From: an uncultured bacterium
GTDB lineage: Bacteria; Patescibacteriota; Minisyncoccia; Phycocordibacterales; CAIZLB01
Length of the DNA stretch: 64,000 nt
Assembly: GCA_903848795.1 (NCBI GenBank)
Contig: CAINHC010000021.1
Location: 11,309-75,308 of the forward strand
Direction: 5' to 3'
Position 1 is the first letter of the stretch, and the number at the start of each line of letters is the position of its first letter. Under the pieces are notes generated by a model, which saw nothing but the letters and a program-made list of their open reading frames with translations, was not told where the DNA came from and ran no database searches. The position numbers and the translations under genes were made by a program. This document shows, one piece after another, positions 2,408 to 40,726 of the stretch.

Positions 2408-4315
2408 CTATAATCTTAATTTGTTTAATAAATCTTCTAATTTAATTGTAGCAACTCCCGTCACACTATCACCTGCTCCATAATATATATAGGCTCGGTC
2501 TTCTCTCATAACCAAACTACATGGAAATACCACCTTAGGAACTAATCCATTCACCTCATAAGGTGCCTCTGGTTCAAAAATCGGAGCAGCAGTCTTTGCT
2601 TTTACAACTGTTGGGTTTTCTAGGTCAAGTAAAAGCGCACCGACTCTATATGTCTTATTTTTGGAAATTCCGTGGTACAAAATCAGCCAGCCTTCAGCGG
2701 TTTTGAGTGGTGGACCAGCGATACCAATTTTAACACCATCCCACATACCAGGTTCGGGGTTTAGTATATCTATACACTTTGTAATTTTTTCTTTTGTAAA
2801 ATCAAGAGTTTCGACAAAGTCAGCACAAATACTATTATCAACTCTATGAATTATCATGTACTTTCCGTGTATCTTTTCTGGGAAAATAACTGCGTCTTTG
2901 ATGGGAATATTTGGCGGGGTAATTACATTTGGCATTGACCATTGTTCCCATTTTCTAGCAAGAAAATCATCGACGGAAATTGAACTCACTGCAACTCTTG
3001 GAGTTATGCCGTTATAGGCAGTGTAAGTCATGTATATAATATCTCCAATTCTAATTAAACGTGGGTCTTCACATCCATAATTATTATTTGCTCCATCATC
3101 TCTTTTTTCAAAATCAGCACGAGGAGTATATATTGGCATTTTTGGACGCTCATCGATTTTTAGTCCATCCTTACTATACGCATACCCCAGGACAGAAACA
3201 TTTCCAGCAGAGGCCGCACGATAGATAATGTGAGTCTCGCCATTCAAGTTAATCACCGCAGGATTTATTGTACCACCAGCTTCCCATGCCACCCCATCAC
3301 GAGGAGAAAGTATTGGGTTGCCTGCAAATCTCTTGAATTTATGCTCAAGCATTGAGTCAGTCATTAGACTCAATAAGTTTTCTAAATTAACAAAAGCAAC
3401 AGCGCAATGTGTATCAGCTCCCCCGTAATATATTTCCAATCGACCGCCCTTAACTAGAGTTCCTGTTGGAAATATAATATTGGAAACATGACCAGTCTTT
3501 TCGTAATACGTACTTGGAACCATAAATGGACCATTTGTCCTTCCAATAATTCTTCTTGGATTTTCCAAATCAAGTAATACTGCTTCAACTCCAAATATTG
3601 GATTCTGAGTTGAATAGTCTTGAATGTGGGAATATATAACAAGCCAGCCCTTTTCTGTCTTAAGTGGCGGGGTTCCCATCTCAACCTGATCACTATCTTT
3701 TCTTCGTAGATTTATTTTATGCTGGTCTCCTTCCTTCAGCCAATCATGCCATTTTTGGTCATTCCACAGATCTTCAGGCTTATCAAATTCTACATAACAA
3801 ATATCAGCTGGCCATTTGTCAGTGTTAATCGTGACGAGTCCTGCGATTTTGCCATTTATTTTCTCTGAGAACAAAGCCATTGCCTTTGCATTAAAAGGTG
3901 TAACTAAATGTTTCTCTTTAACAGTATTCAAATCATCACTTAAAGCGACTGCCACTTTTATATTATCAGCTGAGAAAGGATAGCCACCGAGCGCGGTGTA
4001 GAATGTATAATATACGCCATCAATTTTTGTTATTCTTGGATCTTCACACCCATATTTGTCATAGTCTTCACTTGGGCCAAAAAATTGTCTACGATTTTCA
4101 AAATTAATTCCATCTATCGATTCGGCAATACCAATAACAGAAGTACTTATGTGAGGCTCCATCAAATGATCTGGTTCAGACATCGCTCTATAAACAATGT
4201 GAGTCTTTTCACCTGAGACAATCGGACAACCATTAAAAGAAGAGTGGGCTTCCCATGGATGTTCCTGAATGGGTGAAAGTATTGGATTATGTTCTAGTCT
4301 ATTTAGTGTAAACAT
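2408..4315 (-). CDS. Tandem double-domain GH130 (beta-mannoside phosphorylase/hydrolase family) protein
   Basis: Two ~300-aa halves, each with the GH130 GCEDPR motif followed by a YxTYTA block (GCEDPRITKIDGVYYTFYTA and GCEDPRLIRIGDIIYMTYTAYNG). Confidence 0.7.
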   Translation of the reverse strand: MFTLNRLEHNPILSPIQEHPWEAHSSFNGCPIVSGEKTHIVYRAMSEPDHLMEPHISTSVIGIAESIDGINFENRRQFFGPSEDYDKYGCEDPRITKIDGVYYTFYTALGGYPFSADNIKVAVALSDDLNTVKEKHLVTPFNAKAMALFSEKINGKIAGLVTINTDKWPADICYVEFDKPEDLWNDQKWHDWLKEGDQHKINLRRKDSDQVEMGTPPLKTEKGWLVIYSHIQDYSTQNPIFGVEAVLLDLENPRRIIGRTNGPFMVPSTYYEKTGHVSNIIFPTGTLVKGGRLEIYYGGADTHCAVAFVNLENLLSLMTDSMLEHKFKRFAGNPILSPRDGVAWEAGGTINPAVINLNGETHIIYRAASAGNVSVLGYAYSKDGLKIDERPKMPIYTPRADFEKRDDGANNNYGCEDPRLIRIGDIIYMTYTAYNGITPRVAVSSISVDDFLARKWEQWSMPNVITPPNIPIKDAVIFPEKIHGKYMIIHRVDNSICADFVETLDFTKEKITKCIDILNPEPGMWDGVKIGIAGPPLKTAEGWLILYHGISKNKTYRVGALLLDLENPTVVKAKTAAPIFEPEAPYEVNGLVPKVVFPCSLVMREDRAYIYYGAGDSVTGVATIKLEDLLNKLRL

Positions 4316-4380
4316 TTGATTTTTATTTTTCGAAATTTTTATATTTTAACTTTTGGATTCTGACACAATTTTTAAAAATA

Positions 4381-5517
4381 TTAATTGGTTTTGCCATATT
4401 TTTTAAGCCAAGCTAATAAAGGCTTTAATGGGGTCTTGGCAACACAAACAGTTTTGTCTCCCCCACCATAATAAACATACAAATCATCATCCAAAACCAA
4501 AGCTCCAGAGGCATATACAACTCCAGGCTTTCCATCATTTTCATAGTGTGCATCAGGCTCAAGTATTGGATAAATAGATCTGTAAAGAATAACACTTGGA
4601 TCCTTCAAGTCTAGTATCATACATCCAACCTTGTATTTGTTAGGATCCTTTTTATCCATCGCATGATAAAGCAAGAGCCAGCCTAACTTTGTCTTCACTG
4701 GAGGAGAGCCAGCTCCTCGCATCCAATTATCCCATTTATCTTCTCGTCCGCCAGATGGAGCCTTACTCTTTATAAATTCATCGCTCTTAATATAATTAAT
4801 ATCATCAACGTAACTTATTTGTACCTTTGGAGAGACACTGTGAAGTATTGCCATCTTTCCATTTATTTTTTCTGGAAATAAAACCCAATTTTTATTTACC
4901 TCGGTGATAGAGGAAATAAACTTCGGCTTTTTCCAATTCCATTTTCCAGCTTTTAAATCTTCCATTGAAATGGAAGTGAGAGCTATTCTAACCGACTGCC
5001 ATCCTTCAAAAGCGGTGTAAGTCATGTAAACTCTTCCATCCATCACAATGGCACGAGGATCCTCACATCCTCCCCAACTACCGCCAGAACTGTAAATATC
5101 TGTATCGTAATATTTTGGACCGCTAACAACATCTCTTTCTCCGGACTCTTTCAAAATATCATATGAAGGCGGAGTACAAAAAACATAAACAGGATATGGA
5201 GTTTTTGTTGGAAAATTTACTCCATCCATACTTTTTGCATGACCTATACGAGATATACCATCGTCACCTATTGCTCTGTAGAATAGGTGGACAAAACCCT
5301 CATCGTCCTTTATAGCAGCTGGATTAAAAGTTCCGACAGTTTCCCATCCACTATATGGCTTTGGTTGAATTATTGGATTGTTTTCATATCTAATCAAAGC
5401 GAAACGATCTGGTACAACTCTCTTTTTATAAAGATTGACTAGGTGTTTGATGAAATAAACAACACAAACTACCAACCCAACTGATAGAGTAATTAAGATT
5501 AATAAGTTTAAGGTCAT
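4381..5517 (-). CDS. Membrane-anchored single-domain GH130 family protein
   Basis: N-terminal TM helix, then GGCEDPRAIVMDGRVYMTYTAFEGW. Its start overlaps the stop of the upstream cupin gene by 1 nt, consistent with an operon. Confidence 0.7.
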   Translation of the reverse strand: MTLNLLILITLSVGLVVCVVYFIKHLVNLYKKRVVPDRFALIRYENNPIIQPKPYSGWETVGTFNPAAIKDDEGFVHLFYRAIGDDGISRIGHAKSMDGVNFPTKTPYPVYVFCTPPSYDILKESGERDVVSGPKYYDTDIYSSGGSWGGCEDPRAIVMDGRVYMTYTAFEGWQSVRIALTSISMEDLKAGKWNWKKPKFISSITEVNKNWVLFPEKINGKMAILHSVSPKVQISYVDDINYIKSDEFIKSKAPSGGREDKWDNWMRGAGSPPVKTKLGWLLLYHAMDKKDPNKYKVGCMILDLKDPSVILYRSIYPILEPDAHYENDGKPGVVYASGALVLDDDLYVYYGGGDKTVCVAKTPLKPLLAWLKKYGKTN

Positions 5518-5885
5518 TATTTTATTTGACTAGGTCTGTTATATTTATCTTCGACACGGACAATATCATTTTCATTAAAATTGCCGTACGCTATTTCTAA
5601 TAAAACCACATCTTCACTTCCCGCCTCTATTCTATGCAAACTCTTGCGAGGTACAAAGTAATCTTCTCCAGCTACGACATCTTTTCTTGCACCTCCAACT
5701 GTTGCGACACCATTACCAGAAATTATTCTCCAAAACTCATCTCTATCGTCGTGATATTGCAAACTAAAGGCCTGGCCTTTCTCAACTGTAATTATTTTTA
5801 CAGTACAAGGCTGGTTTTTTACAAATTCTACAAAATTACCCCATGGTCTGCTTTCTTGATACGGTTTTGAAGGGTTTTGTTCCAT
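5517..5885 (-). CDS. Cupin-domain protein, mannose-6-phosphate isomerase type II C-terminal-like
   Basis: Cupin_2 core GQAFSLQYHDDRDEFWRIISGNGVATVGG, co-transcribed upstream of the GH130 genes. Confidence 0.55.
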   Translation of the reverse strand: MEQNPSKPYQESRPWGNFVEFVKNQPCTVKIITVEKGQAFSLQYHDDRDEFWRIISGNGVATVGGARKDVVAGEDYFVPRKSLHRIEAGSEDVVLLEIAYGNFNENDIVRVEDKYNRPSQIK

Positions 5886-6196
5886 AGTGTTAGATAAAAA
5901 TTGTGTTAAATTTATGGATTAATTATAGCACACCACCCTGCACTCGAGGTCAAAAGTTATCCACTTATTTGAGTCTTATTTGAATGGGTTGGCTAACCTC
6001 ATTTATCTTAATTTTCTTTAACAGTACACTCTTTCAAATATTTATCAGCGGATTCTGCATTCATGATTTTTATACTCTTTTGGTATCCAAAGTACTCCAT
6101 AATTAGTTTCTGTTCCTCTGTCACATCTCATGTGAATACGTCTATCGCAGTTTTTGGGGATTTCTATTATAGCTTTGTAGTTCATGTTTTTTCAGC

Positions 6197-7420
6197 CTAT
6201 ATGGATTTAATATTGAAGTAACTCGATGAATTCACCGGTGCGGTATTATCTGTTTTGTTTTTAAAATACAAAGCATATCCATCAGCCTGATGGATATTAG
6301 CAGGAACCTTAAATGTTATATTCTTTGTCTTTGAATCAACAAAACCAAGAAATACAGAGCTATAGTTTTCCGTTAGTGAAGGTGTTATTTTATTTAATTC
6401 ATTATACAAGAAAACATTATAGTCTGCAGATGGCAAATCATAATTACTCCAGGTCATGTTATAAGTTTGTCCAGGTCGCAGTACAGCAAAAGGTCCCATC
6501 GAAAATTTAATCGAAACAACATCCGTTGATGAGGCTGTGGTAGAAGTTGCATTAGTTCCAGATGACGGAGCTGGTGGAACAACATTCACTGGATTAGTTG
6601 TAGCTGGTCCAGCCTTTATCTCAAAATCTCTTGACGATGACACCGGAACATTATTATCAGACTTGTTTTTAAAGTACAAGCCATAATCAGTATTGGGATG
6701 CATATTAGCAGGAATCTTAAATACAAGATTCTTTGTTTTTGCATCAACGTACCCTAGGAATACAGAGCTATAGTTTTCCGTTAGTGAAGGTTTTATTTCA
6801 TTAGATGGACTATATAAGAAAATATTATAATTTGCAGAAGGTGCGTCGTAATTACTCCAAGTTACACTATAAGTCTGTCCTGCCAGTAGTACCTTGGGTA
6901 ACTTTGAATATGTAAGTGGTATAGCGTCTGTTAATGAAGCGGTGGATATTGATGCAGAATCTGTAGATCCGGCTGATGGCGCCTGTAGGAAGACAACATT
7001 TGTGGGAGTGGAAGTCGGAGTAGTTGTTCCAGCTAATGAATAGTTTGTTGAGGTAGCTACCGGACCAGTTGTTGCCTCAGCGCAATCAATTTGCTTAATC
7101 TTCGCTCTTGTTAATGAACCAACATATCCAGTTGGAGAAATATTATTATCCTTCTGGAAAGCCTTAACAGCAATAAGGGTCGCACGGCCAAAGAATCCGG
7201 TTGGTTGCGCAGTTAAATAATTTTTAGTATTTAAAAAATCTTGCAAAATAGAAATGTCAGTAGCCCCACTTGAATCTCTAGTTCCATATTTAAGATTATT
7301 ATTAATGATCGCACAAGCCTGAGAGCCTGTTGGATCAACGTCGCTCTGCTGTGCAAATATTAATGAAGGAGTTAATAAAAGCACCAACACCAAAACACTA
7401 TACAAAATACTTTTTTTCAT
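6197..7420 (-). CDS. Secreted protein with N-terminal peptidoglycan-binding (PG_binding_1) domain and two internal ~95-aa tandem repeats
   Basis: Signal peptide; PG-binding motif ILQDFLNTKNYL...GFFGRATLIAVKAFQ...GYVG; two repeats sharing ...TWSNYD.PSA.YN.FLY...PSLTENYSSVFLG.VD.KTKN..FK.PAN... Confidence 0.6.
   Translation of the reverse strand: MKKSILYSVLVLVLLLTPSLIFAQQSDVDPTGSQACAIINNNLKYGTRDSSGATDISILQDFLNTKNYLTAQPTGFFGRATLIAVKAFQKDNNISPTGYVGSLTRAKIKQIDCAEATTGPVATSTNYSLAGTTTPTSTPTNVVFLQAPSAGSTDSASISTASLTDAIPLTYSKLPKVLLAGQTYSVTWSNYDAPSANYNIFLYSPSNEIKPSLTENYSSVFLGYVDAKTKNLVFKIPANMHPNTDYGLYFKNKSDNNVPVSSSRDFEIKAGPATTNPVNVVPPAPSSGTNATSTTASSTDVVSIKFSMGPFAVLRPGQTYNMTWSNYDLPSADYNVFLYNELNKITPSLTENYSSVFLGFVDSKTKNITFKVPANIHQADGYALYFKNKTDNTAPVNSSSYFNIKSI
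6215..6905. repeat. Intragenic tandem duplication, two ~290-nt copies at ~80% nucleotide identity
   Basis: Near-identical 45-nt stretches share a common core (...atcaac...aatacagagctatagttttccgttagtgaagg...) at 6345-6390 and 6746-6790; they encode the two protein repeats. Confidence 0.7.
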
Positions 7421-7448
7421 GAATTTTATAAATTTAATTCTTAATGGA

Positions 7449-8036
7449 TTAATTATACAACACCATCTCCGTTATTTCCAACATCTCTCCATCTGACCCC
7501 TTAAATCTTTCATCAAAGGTCTTTTTACCAGTTTCAACAAAACCTTGTTTTTTATAAAAGCCCACCCCTCGGGAGTTAAGGGAAAATACATCTAAATACG
7601 TATCTTTGTTTTTATCCAACAAACCGTGTGCTTTATCATACAATTCTTTAGCAAGCCCTTGACCCTTGAATTCTGGCATGACATACAAAGCCTCTATTGT
7701 ATTTTTATCTTCATGTTTTTCAGCAAAACAACATCCGACAACTTTTTCTTCATCTTTCCCATCGTTGTCATTAGTCATTTTTGCGACCATAAGAATATTA
7801 TCATCCGTAAAATTAGCAATGCCTTTTTCCAACCCCTCGGCTGCCTTTTGTGCTTTTTCTGGAGGAAAATGATTATTTATCTCCTCCTCCGACCAACCGC
7901 AAAGTTTGTACATCCCTTTGGATGATTCAATTGTTAATGATTGGATACCATAGGCGTCGGAAGGGATAGCTTTTGATATTTTGACGTTGTTCATTTTATA
8001 TCTATTTATTAAGCGCATTCCTTGTTGCTGGACCAA
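7449..8036 (-). CDS. GNAT-family N-acetyltransferase
   Basis: Acetyl-CoA-binding region VMPEFKGQGLAKELYDKA...RGVGFYKKQGFVETG. The start overlaps the upstream gene, so the true start is probably an internal Met. Confidence 0.6.
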   Translation of the reverse strand: MVQQQGMRLINRYKMNNVKISKAIPSDAYGIQSLTIESSKGMYKLCGWSEEEINNHFPPEKAQKAAEGLEKGIANFTDDNILMVAKMTNDNDGKDEEKVVGCCFAEKHEDKNTIEALYVMPEFKGQGLAKELYDKAHGLLDKNKDTYLDVFSLNSRGVGFYKKQGFVETGKKTFDERFKGSDGEMLEITEMVLYN

Positions 8037-35969: not shown

Positions 35970-36896
35970 CTATATCCTATACTCCCCTACACCCAATCTC
36001 TTAATCGAATACGCCAGAGCGGGCACCTTTAATTTATCGCCAATTAATTCTGCAAGGGTTCTCATATATGAACCGCTAGCGCACTTAACTTTTATTTTTA
36101 TAATTGGATATTCTATTTCCTCATTTTTATGTGCGCTTTTGGTTTTCTTTATTTTCTTTGCAAAAACTTTTTCATTCCATTCATTTAAAATTTTATCTTG
36201 TCTAAAATCCCCCTTAACCTTTGCAATTCTTTTCGAAATATTATTATGCAAAATTTCAATAGGCATCAAACTCAAATCCAGAAATTCAATTTTCTGAATA
36301 GATAATTTGGTCATTGGTCTTAAAAATATTTCTCGCCTGTCTTCGCCTACTTCATTTACGTCACCTTCCTCCTCCGCAAACTCTCTCGCCCACTCATACA
36401 ACGGCTTACCCTCCAGGGTCTTTGAAGAAAACCAAGGATACGGCACCTCCATCTCCCCCACAAACGATTCGCAAATACTTTGGACATTTTTCAGATCAAA
36501 TACAACATCGCCTAAAATCGACTCACCAATCAAACCTAAAATATCCCCCGTATCCGTGCTGACCCCCAACAAGACCTCAACCTCATACTCCTTACTCAGC
36601 CCCAAATACTCATGTTTAGACTTAATGGCCTCACCTCTCAGATATATCATAAGACCCTCAGCCATAGGGTCAAGCCTACCAGCATAGGTAAATTTATCAT
36701 TAAATGGCAAAAAACCTTCGTCCTTAAGACGGTTAAGACACTCGAGTGGAGTCTCCCCCTCATTTTTATAGGCCACAAAAACATCACTTTGTGTAGGCTG
36801 AAGTTGATTGTCTAAATTGCTCATATTAGGATACAATAATACCACTAAATTAATAAATATGAGAAAACTTTTTTTTGACATTGAAACCAGAAACAC
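35970..36896 (-). CDS. Pseudouridine synthase, TruB-like
   Basis: Catalytic-Asp motif AGRLDPMAEGLMIYL and TruB-type KEYEVEVLLGVSTDTGDILG (K.Y...v.lG..TDT.D). Start uncertain (several in-frame Met). Confidence 0.5.
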   Translation of the reverse strand: MFLVSMSKKSFLIFINLVVLLYPNMSNLDNQLQPTQSDVFVAYKNEGETPLECLNRLKDEGFLPFNDKFTYAGRLDPMAEGLMIYLRGEAIKSKHEYLGLSKEYEVEVLLGVSTDTGDILGLIGESILGDVVFDLKNVQSICESFVGEMEVPYPWFSSKTLEGKPLYEWAREFAEEEGDVNEVGEDRREIFLRPMTKLSIQKIEFLDLSLMPIEILHNNISKRIAKVKGDFRQDKILNEWNEKVFAKKIKKTKSAHKNEEIEYPIIKIKVKCASGSYMRTLAELIGDKLKVPALAYSIKRLGVGEYRI

Positions 36897-37434
36897 ATTT
36901 CAGGAGGTTGGCAAGGCCGACCCGGCAGCACTAGATATATCAGTCGTGTGTGCCTATGATTCAGAAACAGAGACCTATTCTAGCTACACACAAGAGGAGC
37001 TGCATAAACTATGGCCATTAATTGAACAATCCGATGTTTTGGTCACCTTCAACGGAGATCACTTTGACATCCCCCTACTCAACAAATATTATCATGGCAA
37101 CCTATTACAAAAGAAAAGCCTTGACCTACTAAAGGAAGTCAAGAAATCACTAGGCTTTCGCGTAGGGCTTGGAGTAATCGCGCAGGGAACATTGAATGCA
37201 GGCAAAAGCGCCCACGGACTTGAAGCTGTTGAATGGTGGAAGAAGGGTGAAATAGACAAAATAATCAAATACTGCTTGGATGATGTAAAAATCACCAAGG
37301 AGGTTCATGATTACGCTATCGCCAATAAGAAGCTTAAATACAAAGAAGGTGAAGCAATAATCGAATTCCCAATGGACACGAAGGACTGGGAGGATACCGG
37401 AGAAAACAAGATGAATTTCACTTTGCCATTTTAG
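36859..37434 (+). CDS. RNase H-like 3'-5' exonuclease (YprB / PolB-exonuclease-like fold)
   Basis: MRKLFFDIETRN (Exo I DxE) and FNGDHFDIPLL, typical of the RNase_H_2 / DnaQ-like superfamily. The track start at 36808 probably overextends. Confidence 0.5.
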   Translation: MRKLFFDIETRNTFQEVGKADPAALDISVVCAYDSETETYSSYTQEELHKLWPLIEQSDVLVTFNGDHFDIPLLNKYYHGNLLQKKSLDLLKEVKKSLGFRVGLGVIAQGTLNAGKSAHGLEAVEWWKKGEIDKIIKYCLDDVKITKEVHDYAIANKKLKYKEGEAIIEFPMDTKDWEDTGENKMNFTLPF

Positions 37435-37492: not shown

Positions 37493-37579
37493 GATTCAGC
37501 AGAATCGCCTACTGGGCTCGTCCCGACGACGATTCTGGTGAATCGCCTACTGGGCGATTTTGAAGAATCGCCTACTAGG
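37493..37579 (+). promoter_or_regulatory. Three tandem copies of a 24-nt motif GATTC-N4-GAATC-GCCTACT(G/A)GG just upstream of the dsbA-like gene; candidate operator array
   Basis: Copies at 37493-37516, 37531-37554 and 37556-37579 (starts 38 and 25 nt apart). Each holds an internal 5-bp dyad GATTC/GAATC. -10-like tgatataat at 37580-37588, just upstream of the dsbA ATG (37596). Confidence 0.55.
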
Positions 37580-37595
37580 TGATATAATAGACAAC

Positions 37596-38333
37596 ATGGA
37601 AAATACCGAACAGACACAAAGACGTATGTCATTACAAACAATGATTATACCAATCGCCATCATAATCGCTGGCGCATTAATAGCGGGTGGAATTTATATG
37701 AGTGGAACTTCTAAAAAAGCGGATCTATCTGGACCTGCAACAATAAAAGCAGAGATTGTGATAGAACCTGTAACTACAGCGGACCACGTTTTGGGAGATC
37801 CAAAGACAGCAAAGGTTACAATTATTGAATATTCAGATTTGGAATGTCCATTCTGTAAGTCATATCATGAGACTCTTTCAAAATTATATGATGAGAACAA
37901 AGCTGGCGGAAAATTAGCATGGGTATATAGACACGCCCCAATTGTTGAACTGCACAGCAAGTCTCCAAAGGAAGCTGAAGCAACGGAGTGTGCAGCCGAG
38001 CTTGGTGGCAACACAGTATTCTGGAAATATTTAACAGAAGTATTTGGAACCACGCCATCAAACAACGGGCTTAACGCAGATAAACTTTATGAATTTGCAG
38101 ATACAGTTGGTCTGAATGCATCAGCATTTAAGACATGTTTGGATAGTGGAAAGTATGCAACCAAAATTAACGAACAAATAACGGCATCCAAAAAAGCAGG
38201 TGTAGAAGGTACTCCTTATGCTGTACTTGTAATGGATGGAAAGAATGTACCATTGGTTGATAAGGACGGAAATGGACTAGGTGCTCTACCATATCCACAG
38301 ATGAAGCAAATTTTGGATCAATTGATGAAATAG
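37596..38333 (+). CDS. DsbA-like thiol:disulfide oxidoreductase, membrane-anchored
   Basis: N-terminal TM helix; thioredoxin-fold CxxC (DLECPFCKSYH). The track start at 37560 is a TTG; the ATG at 37596 is more plausible. Confidence 0.65.
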   Translation: MENTEQTQRRMSLQTMIIPIAIIIAGALIAGGIYMSGTSKKADLSGPATIKAEIVIEPVTTADHVLGDPKTAKVTIIEYSDLECPFCKSYHETLSKLYDENKAGGKLAWVYRHAPIVELHSKSPKEAEATECAAELGGNTVFWKYLTEVFGTTPSNNGLNADKLYEFADTVGLNASAFKTCLDSGKYATKINEQITASKKAGVEGTPYAVLVMDGKNVPLVDKDGNGLGALPYPQMKQILDQLMK

Positions 38334-38382
38334 GATTTCGAGTAATTGTACTCGCTCGACAGATTGTGAATCAATTTTTAAA

Positions 38383-38417
38383 AGACAAAAGCCCCAACGT
38401 GATGTTGAGGGCTTTTG
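38383..38417. terminator. Bidirectional rho-independent terminator between convergent dsbA and the 437-aa gene
   Basis: aaagcccc-aacgtgatgttga-ggggcttt, flanked by an A-run upstream and a T-run downstream. Confidence 0.6.
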
Positions 38418-38435
38418 TTTTTAGGCTTAATAAAC

Positions 38436-39749
38436 CTATTCTATCACTACCTTCTTCTCAACATATTTACGATTAGAAATCTTCATTCCTAAACCATTCA
38501 TTATTTCATACTTACCAACTTTATATTTATCAAATTCTTTCCCGGAAATCTTTTTAGAATACATCTCTCGTAAAAAACTGATTACTATTTCCCTGTCCGC
38601 ATGCTCGAGAAGATCAAGAAATTTCTGAGTGTTAGGATTGTCTATAAAAGACTGAGGTAATTCCACACCCTCCGTACCAGCTTCATGTTTTGCAAAATCC
38701 TTCAATAAGTTATTCCAATCTTGTTTAAATGTATTACCAATTTTATTCATTTCATCTTCAATAACCTCGTGGTCCTCTCTTAGAACTTTTAATACCACCT
38801 CTCCACGACGCGGAGCCGGCAAATACCTTCGTAAAAATTCTTCAACAGGAATATAAGCCTTAACACTTTTAAATGGAATCTCTCCAGTCTCACAAAATTT
38901 ATCAAACCTCTTCCTATTTATTTGCCCGTCTTTATCAATAAACTGCATCCAAGTAGACGGATCATTTTCCTTCCTCGTCCTCTCCCCTCTTTTGACTTTC
39001 TCTTCATCACTATCGTCTTCACCGGGTATTTTTATAAAACCCATCTTTCTAGCAATAGGGGTACTCAGGAGCCATGAAGCTCCAACAACAACTGCAGTAT
39101 CAGGTGATTCATCGACAATATGCAGTGCAATCTTTTCAAAATATGATCTTAGCGACTCTAAACCTATACGATCTTCGTCTGTTCTGTAAAAATCATGAAT
39201 ATGAACCTCTGTCAGTTTAGAGAATTTAGAAAATCCTATTTTTTTAAGCCCCGACCACCTTCCATCCTCAGATCCTCCAATCGAAGCAATGTCCTCACAA
39301 TACACCAGCTCATGCTCCTGCTTTCTTTCGTCACTCTCTCTTGGTTCAATTCTTTTAAGATCTTCAACCCCTAAATATTGTTTTATAGAACTTTTAGCTA
39401 CTTCAATCAGTTTTAATATTTTTTCCAAGTTAAAGCCCTCTTCCTCATACAAAGAATCTAGTTGTTCAAAAAATGATTTAAAAAATGAGTCTAGCTTTTC
39501 TCTGTGTTGAGCAAAACTAAATCCGTCCAATCCAGATAGTATTCTTTTTATACGACCCACTATCATCGTATAATCCTTTAACGCCTCATGAAATGTATAC
39601 TCAGTTTTTACATCTTTGACTTCTTGATACTTTTTATTAGCATAAAACAAAGAAATTAAATCTAACTTTTTATCAAGTAAATTCTTCCTTTCATTTATAC
39701 TATTAGTCTCAATAGGTGAAGTTATATATTGTGCTCTTTCTGGGTCCAT
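38436..39749 (-). CDS. Hypothetical 437-aa cytoplasmic protein directly downstream of the Phd/RelE pair
   Basis: No recognisable motif; charged and coiled-coil-rich. Same strand as the TA module, 100 nt below it. Confidence 0.35.
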   Translation of the reverse strand: MDPERAQYITSPIETNSINERKNLLDKKLDLISLFYANKKYQEVKDVKTEYTFHEALKDYTMIVGRIKRILSGLDGFSFAQHREKLDSFFKSFFEQLDSLYEEEGFNLEKILKLIEVAKSSIKQYLGVEDLKRIEPRESDERKQEHELVYCEDIASIGGSEDGRWSGLKKIGFSKFSKLTEVHIHDFYRTDEDRIGLESLRSYFEKIALHIVDESPDTAVVVGASWLLSTPIARKMGFIKIPGEDDSDEEKVKRGERTRKENDPSTWMQFIDKDGQINRKRFDKFCETGEIPFKSVKAYIPVEEFLRRYLPAPRRGEVVLKVLREDHEVIEDEMNKIGNTFKQDWNNLLKDFAKHEAGTEGVELPQSFIDNPNTQKFLDLLEHADREIVISFLREMYSKKISGKEFDKYKVGKYEIMNGLGMKISNRKYVEKKVVIE

Positions 39750-39849
39750 ATTTAGATTATAACACAGCAGGGCTAGGCTAGGCCATTTTAATATTTTTCA
39801 GCTTAAATCAAGCCTTTCAAACACTTTGATAGACAAGGGATTGGAAGCA

Positions 39850-40116
39850 CTATCTATCATAAAAAACATTTCCTCTACTTTCAATTTCAATGATCTCTAT
39901 TATCAACTTTAATTCAATTATTTGATAAATTATTCTATAGTTTGCAATTTTTATCTTTCTGAGATGAGATAATTTGCCATTCATCTTTATACCCATAGTG
40001 GGATTATTTTGTAATTGATCAATTGCAGACTGGACTCTAAAACATATAGCCTTAGGTATTTTCAATAAAGCTTTTTCAGCATCTTTATGCAAGTAAATTA
40101 TGTATCTTTCTACCAT
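39850..40116 (-). CDS. RelE/ParE-family type II toxin
   Basis: 88 aa; ...KLSHLRKIKIANYRIIYQIIELKLIIEIIEIESRGNVFY is the RelE/ParE C-terminal core. Sits 4 nt after the antitoxin stop. Confidence 0.65.
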   Translation of the reverse strand: MVERYIIYLHKDAEKALLKIPKAICFRVQSAIDQLQNNPTMGIKMNGKLSHLRKIKIANYRIIYQIIELKLIIEIIEIESRGNVFYDR

Positions 40117-40119
40117 AGA

Positions 40120-40479
40120 TTATTTACTCTTCTTATTATTTTTCTTACCTTTACTTACATATTTCTGTTTTGATTCATCTGCTAAAACCATTGTACCCGT
40201 CTTTGCCAAAAGTTCCTGCTTAATACTATTCCAAGCTCGGTATTCACCGTTAGTAAACTCTTCATCTACCTTTTTAACCTTTGCCATAAATTTACGATTC
40301 TTCATGAGAGCCAGATCTTCTACGAGATTTTCATATTCTTCTGCACTAATCATGACCACCTTTGGTTTGCCATTTTCAGTAAATGTAAAAATCTGTCCAA
40401 ACTTTTGAACCTTTTCTGCTATTTCAAATATTTTAGATCTAGCCTCAGATATTGATATAATATTTTTGAATTTTATCAT
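40120..40479 (-). CDS. Phd/YefM-family antitoxin
   Basis: ISISEARSKIFEIAEKVQKFGQIFTFTENGKPKVVMISAEEYENL is the canonical Phd/YefM N-terminal fold sequence. Basic C-terminal tail. Confidence 0.65.
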   Translation of the reverse strand: MIKFKNIISISEARSKIFEIAEKVQKFGQIFTFTENGKPKVVMISAEEYENLVEDLALMKNRKFMAKVKKVDEEFTNGEYRAWNSIKQELLAKTGTMVLADESKQKYVSKGKKNNKKSK

Positions 40480-40726
40480 AGTATGTACATTATAGCGTAC
40501 ATATCGTTTTAAGCAAGTTCAGAAAGTTTAATCTAAAATACCTTTTGTTTTCAATCTGAAATTGACTATTATCATTTTGCTGGTGTCAGCAAAACGATCG
40601 GATTTTTACTTTTTTATAGACCATTTTGTTGACGTCAACAATATGGTTTAGACCTTCCCACGTCGTACCAAATTCTGTACCAGACCCATGACCTCTCCGC
40701 CAATTTAATGCTACAATATTTAAATC

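Follow-up and report, generated by a model that had tools for sequence, protein, structure and literature searches.

A YefM/RelE-type toxin-antitoxin cassette and the adjacent gene of a Patescibacteria family with a predicted GNAT-like core are probably independent units

We analysed a 64,000-nt stretch of DNA from an uncultured bacterium of the Patescibacteriota (hereafter the window; contig CAINHC010000021.1, positions 11,309 to 75,308), in which three consecutive open reading frames (ORFs) between 38436 and 40479 had been described beforehand as a Phd/YefM-RelE/ParE toxin-antitoxin (TA) pair followed by an unassigned 437-aa gene. All three lie on the minus strand. The antitoxin gene (40479..40120; 119 aa, ATG at 40479, stop TAA at 40122-40120) comes first and is followed by the toxin gene (40116..39850; 88 aa, ATG at 40116), a spacer of exactly 100 nt (39849..39750), and the 437-aa gene (39749..38436). 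Positions, sizes, shared strand, antitoxin-first order, and the 100-nt distance from the toxin stop to the next ATG are as the preliminary description had them; the gap within the TA pair, given there as 4 nt, reads as 3 nt (TAA-tct-ATG). Downstream, a bidirectional intrinsic terminator (38379..38423, both strands) is common to the 437-aa gene and a convergent DsbA-like gene on the plus strand (37560..38333). The TA pair and the 437-aa gene occupy a variable chromosomal slot flanked by the genes for a trypsin-like protease and the DsbA-like protein. No match came from Rfam and tRNA scans of the region and its surroundings. Comparison with related loci indicates that two independent units very probably lie side by side here, an autonomous TA cassette and an unrelated 437-aa gene. 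The earlier proposal of a three-gene functional unit, possibly a defence or abortive-infection island, is unsupported, since the 437-aa gene is found without the TA pair and the TA pair without the 437-aa gene.

This reciprocal presence and absence in relatives is the basis for regarding the two units as independent. Loci related to the 437-aa gene were sought with a 5-sequence alignment as the query, and those searched for the TA pair were L001-L021 and L031-L038, with 4- to 6-kb flanks. Local hidden Markov model (HMM) searches found no relative of the toxin or the antitoxin in the approximately 25 distinct non-conspecific loci of the 437 family and, conversely, no 437-family member in six other TA loci (L022-L026 and L030). 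Outside the window's own species, the TA pair and the 437 family are thus mutually exclusive. Conservation of the three-gene arrangement in other genomes, which the preliminary description had raised, extends only to contigs of the window's own species: the layout recurs in 20 contigs from several samples, all conspecific, with a 100% identical toxin and the same flanks.

Syntenic relatives record the loss of the TA pair. A 441-aa orthologue of the 437-aa protein (P0002; 64% identity) is present without the TA pair in L001-L003 and L008. Synteny with the window is complete there and runs through genes for a histidine kinase, a response regulator, the trypsin-like protease, the 441-aa protein, DsbA, an RNase-H-like protein, TruB, and T2SSE, and the place of the TA pair is taken by 148 nt of intergenic DNA. 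A segment of the antitoxin gene, WNSIKQELLAKTGTM (codons ~83-97; 40189..40232, minus strand), survives as a relic in this intergenic DNA in L001/L008; blastn places it in L001 at 5897..5940 with 91% identity over 44 nt and 92.7% over 41 nt. The peptide encoded by this segment is conserved in antitoxin homologues at other genomic sites and is hence an integral part of the antitoxin; its conservation at unrelated loci also speaks against an alternative that we considered and rejected, in which the 44-nt stretch was intergenic DNA at first and the antitoxin ORF later captured it. The relic therefore indicates that the slot ancestrally contained a TA pair, which decayed in that lineage without loss of the 437-aa orthologue.

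The reciprocal case is L030, in which a TA pair (81% nucleotide identity) is followed by 135 nt and then by the convergent DsbA gene (81.6% nucleotide identity), without a 437-aa gene. The spacer between TA and DsbA in L030 contains no relic of that gene, only 10-nt chance matches at E ~0.2. In L005, a Bro-N gene occupies the TA slot, and the 437-family gene (5001..5993; P0003, 330 aa) lacks approximately residues 266-365 through an internal, in-frame deletion, and with them two strands of the core and the invariant W-x-Q-F-x4-G motif; this copy is probably decaying. In this lineage, the trypsin-DsbA interval is an indel hotspot. It holds the TA pair and the 437-aa gene in the window (38334..40726); the antitoxin relic with a 441-aa and a 192-aa gene in L001 (5853..8248); the Bro-N gene with the truncated 330-aa gene and a 223-aa gene in L005 (3898..7049); and, in L030 (520..654), the TA pair only, next to DsbA. 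The closest non-conspecific TA cassettes (L022-L026; 62-74% identity) are found elsewhere, between rplI and rpmA (L022 1294..1950, L023 3632..4267, and L026 4001..4660), an intergenic site shared by several related genomes and apparently the second at which the cassette is recurrently integrated or retained.

The TA pair itself is canonical, as had been described, with Pfam and NCBIfam matches above curated cut-offs and a YefM-type paired-box operator adding strength to the assignment. The antitoxin matches PF02604 (PhdYeFM_antitox; E 7.3e-13, 48.5 bits against a cut-off of 29.8) and TIGR01552 (31.8 bits, cut-off 20.8). Its N-terminal Phd/YefM domain (aa 6-74) is followed by a C-terminal extension with a Lys-rich tail, and PF02604 is present in 31/31 antitoxin homologues. 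The nearest solved relative is Mycobacterium tuberculosis Rv2865 (3g5o_A, E 2.2e-5), with the RelB and YefM antitoxins next. The toxin matches PF05016 (ParE_toxin; E 1.5e-9, 38.7 bits, cut-off 23), PF15781 (E 3.8e-7, 30.4 bits, cut-off 28), TIGR02385 (RelE_StbE; E 2.4e-7, 31.2 bits, cut-off 27.9), and the RelE-like phrog_1213 of PHROGs (E 1.3e-16), and its nearest solved relatives are the archaeal RelE 1wmi (E 5e-4) and Escherichia coli RelE; Rv2866 was also matched. The toxin family has no match in the IMG/VR scan. Antitoxin-toxin pairing is retained in every homologous locus (L022-L030).

R61, R81, and Y87 are catalytic residues of E. coli RelE. The toxin of the window carries R61, R81, and Y86, the last close to the C terminus; its YR (60-61) and R81 align to the YR and R81 of the E. 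coli protein, in an alignment whose E-value is only 0.03, and its C-terminal half is nearly invariant among 8 homologues. The 88-aa toxin belongs to the RelE/ParE superfamily, is closest in sequence to the RelE-type mRNA interferases, and would be a RelE-like, ribosome-dependent mRNA endonuclease. A ParE-like activity as a gyrase poison may also be considered, since the matching Pfam model bears the name ParE_toxin. E. coli RelE and archaeal aRelE (1WMI, 4FXE, 4V7J) are its best sequence matches, with aligned YR and R81, although at E-values of only 5e-4 to 0.07. As a pair, the two genes are reminiscent of M. tuberculosis RelBE2 (Rv2865/Rv2866; PDB 3G5O), which likewise combines a Phd/YefM antitoxin and a small RelE-family toxin in the same gene order. 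Unlike RelBE2, the pair of the window, to which it has low identity, has a longer, Lys-rich C-terminal antitoxin tail and a Patescibacteria host.

The TA promoter and operator (40484..40516, minus strand), read directly from the sequence, consist of a -35-like TTGCTT (40516..40511), a 16-nt spacer, and a -10 TATAAT (40494..40489), with two boxes, TGTACG (40501..40496) and TGTACA (40489..40484), placed 12 bp apart from centre to centre so as to bracket the -10. Kedzierska et al. reported that YefM and the YefM-YoeB complex repress their own promoter via paired TGTACA cores 12 bp apart, and that such pairs, with at most one mismatch, occur no more than 80 bp from many yefM starts (PMC1802561). 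The paired boxes of the TA cassette fit this published operator rule in spacing (12 bp), mismatches (≤1), and distance from the start (≤80 bp). They resemble the operators of E. coli YefM-YoeB and Axe-Txe, in which a pair of TGTACA-core boxes 12 bp apart and less than 80 bp from the start overlaps the promoter (PMC1802561), and differ from YefM-YoeB in that the toxin served is RelE/ParE-like, not YoeB, and that one box is TGTACG, with one mismatch. Binding of the antitoxin to the paired TGTAC boxes, and hence autorepression, would be expected from this architecture. In L022, L023/L024, and L026, the TA homologues are likewise preceded by an ATGTACG(C/T)TAT(A/T)ATGTACA block. Since the same promoter/operator block precedes homologous cassettes at another site, the cassette travels with its own promoter and operator. 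Two of the L022-L026 cassettes are followed by a stem-loop and T-run that read, by eye only, as intrinsic terminators.

The 437-aa gene has signals of its own. An extended -10 promoter, TGTTATAAT, lies in the spacer at 39764..39756, 6 nt before the ATG, and no Shine-Dalgarno sequence precedes this ATG; the mRNA therefore looks leaderless. In L001 and L005, the last ~40 nt before the gene are conserved, TGnTATAAT among them, and the promoter is thus kept despite a different upstream gene in each case: the toxin in the window, the antitoxin relic in L001, and Bro-N in L005. The 100-nt spacer downstream of the toxin gene shows no terminator and folds no better than its shuffles (z -0.89). At the other end, the bidirectional terminator noted previously is confirmed by a hairpin that is strong on both strands (-21.2 kcal/mol on the minus strand, z -5.5; -23.8 kcal/mol on the plus strand, z -5.8) and is matched in folding by 0/200 shuffles, with A/T runs on either side. 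The gene is under purifying selection, with a ratio of nonsynonymous to synonymous substitution rates (dN/dS) of ~0.18 and a dS near saturation.

The preliminary description had treated the 437-aa gene as an orphan without a recognisable domain. It is no orphan: an exhaustive profile search retrieved at least 276 representatives of 50%-identity clusters at E ≤ 1e-3, 150 of them at ≤ 1e-30, compared with only 13 relatives from a word-indexed search. Members are mostly full-length (380-430 aa), and the labels of their genome records read Patescibacteria, Paceibacterota, Parcubacteria, and Uhrbacteria. Cluster count, dN/dS, and taxon labels together establish a real gene family. As for a domain, the profile and structure predictions that had been suggested were run, and the statement stands at the level of sequence profiles and falls at that of predicted structure. 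PHROGs gave nothing above noise for the 437-aa protein, and Pfam, NCBIfam, and PADLOC gave no significant match; searches of PDB sequences with 14- and 55-sequence profiles of the family returned only low-complexity helical noise (designed PPR, FliS, BAG). Nor did tblastn find a match in phages or plasmids, and the family is unmatched in the IMG/VR scan.

A confident AlphaFold2 model built from 14 sequences (predicted local distance difference test, pLDDT, 83.4; predicted template modelling score, pTM, 0.75) shows three parts in the protein, which is encoded on the minus strand: aa 1-126 form an N-terminal helical bundle, aa ~147-325 (nt 38775..39311) an alpha/beta core, and aa 327-436 a C-terminal domain that is helical and closes with a strand. 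The core as modelled has a divergent GNAT-like fold. The alpha/beta fold of the GNAT superfamily is present in this predicted core, and a GNAT-clan profile match above a curated threshold is missing for the protein. Foldseek with the model gave no PDB match at E ≤ 1e-3 and nothing among the viral structures of BFVD, and hhalign detected no relation between the family profile and a canonical GNAT neighbour (probability 0.1%). The sole sequence families that the 437 family approaches are the GNAT-like Pfam families YkoP (PF22790) and GNAT_C (PF18164), with weak matches in 5/55 and 4/55 diverse members, respectively. Against YkoP, the family consensus core scores E 1.5e-5 and 24.7 bits, below the 27-bit gathering threshold, over a match that spans beta4-alpha3-beta5-alpha4 with the EIH ... 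SWLL.TPIA..LGF motifs. The window protein itself is unmatched, and the flanking helical domains and a 241-295 insert with the invariant W-x-Q-F-x4-G are found only in the 437 family. The literature searched contained nothing functional on YkoP, PF22790, or PF18164.

Genes adjoining 437-family members elsewhere are varied and mostly metabolic or housekeeping, encoding NUDIX, GNAT, flavodoxin, Obg, and YgjP-like proteins, permeases, and glycosyltransferases. NUDIX is the commonest family among them (6/116 scanned neighbouring proteins, among the top 25 Pfam families). A NUDIX gene directly adjoins the 437-family gene, upstream or downstream, in L004 (6994..7527), L016 (5447..5974), L018 (605..1057), and L019 (3383..3835), separated from it or overlapping with it by just a few nt, and another is nearby in L011 and L017. 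This adjacency is a modest hint that the two may share a pathway. PADLOC matches among the neighbours are at the domain level only, such as NUDIX to PDC-S07 and trypsin to RT-Protease; the six PDC-S07 matches (best E 2e-16) probably come from the adjacent NUDIX proteins. No recurrent small partner gene stands beside the 437-family genes in 17 surveyed loci. In L021, an ORF just downstream of the family member (7234..7899) gives a weak second match to the family HMM (E 5e-5) and may be a degraded tandem duplicate.

How far could the three genes of the window nevertheless form one module, either a tripartite TA system or a defence/abortive-infection island, in which the 437-aa protein would serve as an effector, sensor, or accessory, co-transcribed with the TA pair and under its control? 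They share a strand at a distance of 100 nt with no terminator between toxin and 437-aa gene, their layout is stable in the 20 contigs of the species, the slot is variable and takes a Bro-N gene in the relative L005, and evolution is faster in the 437-aa gene than in its neighbours. Such a module is, however, extremely unlikely given that the TA pair is found in 0 of the ~25 non-conspecific 437 loci and the 437 family in 0/6 other TA loci, that each has been lost without the other in syntenic relatives, and that the 437-aa gene is preceded by a conserved promoter of its own. PADLOC, moreover, matches neither antitoxin, toxin, nor 437-aa protein, and the family's mostly metabolic or housekeeping neighbours give only the domain-level matches mentioned above. 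Several observations do weigh against two independent units. With a shared strand and a terminator-free spacer, transcription from the TA promoter could read through into the 437-aa gene in this genome. No flanking gene evolves as fast as the 437-aa gene (65% amino acid identity for the latter versus 81-100%), which sits in an indel-prone slot, has an internal deletion in L005, and is missing from this slot in L030; there is a small chance that these features mark an accessory or conflict gene, which they would also fit. L030, for its part, is a single 1370-bp contig, and the neighbour summary covers the top 25 Pfam families, so that a lone unrelated TA family beside one homologue is possible. 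Fast evolution and a variable slot do not, however, tie the 437-aa gene to the TA pair, and we conclude that their adjacency is accidental.

With the 437-aa gene taken as a unit of its own, its product could be a GNAT-type toxin or conflict effector, like the aminoacyl-tRNA acetyltransferases TacT, AtaT, and KacT, acting independently of the Phd-RelE pair. The predicted GNAT-like core and the rapid evolution of the gene are compatible with this, which we nonetheless consider very unlikely: the toxins of TacAT, AtaRT, and KacAT are single-domain proteins of ~170-180 aa with an adjacent DUF1778/ribbon-helix-helix (RHH) antitoxin, unlike the three-domain 437-aa protein. Somewhat less improbable, although still doubtful, is a broader proposal, that the protein represents a Patescibacteria-specific class of GNAT-fold enzyme, accessory and fast-evolving, gained and lost time and again in a variable slot, and possibly working with an adjacent NUDIX hydrolase on a nucleotide- or CoA-linked substrate. 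Its role in these episymbiotic bacteria could then be host interaction or conflict instead of housekeeping, with the TA pair marking a small flexible islet and not acting as a partner. Finally, the protein may not be catalytic. The pyrophosphate-binding loop for acetyl-CoA (Q/R-x-x-G-x-G/A after beta4) would fall at aa 185-197, a region that varies among family members and is of low model confidence, and G196 is conserved only among close relatives. However, H183, S225-W226, F238, W267, Q269, and G275, located within the core or close to it, are invariant or nearly invariant in 55 diverse members, which looks like a functional site rather than constraint from the fold only, and a non-catalytic role is accordingly rather unlikely, if well within consideration. 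YkoP and GNAT_C, which are functionally uncharacterised, do not settle this question. We regard the 437-aa protein as a candidate enzyme.

For the preferred reading of two independent units, we propose the following mechanism. The YefM/Phd-type antitoxin would neutralise the RelE-type toxin by direct binding, and the antitoxin or the antitoxin-toxin complex would repress the TA promoter through the two TGTAC boxes around the -10; the cassette would be gained and lost as a block together with this promoter and operator. The 437-aa gene, in turn, would be transcribed from its own extended -10 promoter as a leaderless mRNA that stops at the bidirectional terminator. Its product would be a cytoplasmic three-domain protein of a Patescibacteria-restricted family, built around a divergent GNAT core whose likeliest activity would be acyl-CoA-dependent acyl transfer or the binding of an acyl-CoA or nucleotide derivative. 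In several distant lineages, the family protein may act together with the adjacent NUDIX hydrolase.

Two further features of the surroundings were recorded. A 191-aa RNase_H_2/DNA_pol_B_exo2-like protein is encoded beyond the DsbA-like gene (36859..37434, plus strand) and is 100% identical in amino acid sequence to its counterpart in L001 (9006..9581), with 66/576 nt differing, all synonymously; the counterpart in L005 (7838..8413) differs by 97 nt and 5 aa. Purifying selection is far weaker on all the neighbouring genes. In the divergent intergenic region between the TA pair and the trypsin-like gene lie two palindromes, TTTTGCTGacacCAGCAAAA (40575..40594) and TTGTTGACGTCAACAA (40626..40641). 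TTTTGCTGacacCAGCAAAA is found at two places in L005, and TTGTTGACGTCAACAA lies inside a 29/29-nt match to L005, the positions of these matches being ~3959..4037 and 4328..4356. The palindromes could be sites for a regulator or small repeat elements.

As a system, the TA pair carries little weight, being a Phd/YefM-RelE cassette of the routine kind. Its interest lies in the comparison, which offers a worked example of how natural reciprocal deletions and a decayed antitoxin relic can split neighbouring genes into independent units, and in the operator, a YefM-type pair of TGTAC boxes conserved in Patescibacteria cassettes with a RelE-like toxin. The 437 family, which lacks a Pfam model, gains a fold-level annotation in the form of its predicted GNAT-like core, as well as a candidate link to NUDIX proteins. 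Annotation of what has been a conserved hypothetical protein in an uncultured phylum may start from these two leads.

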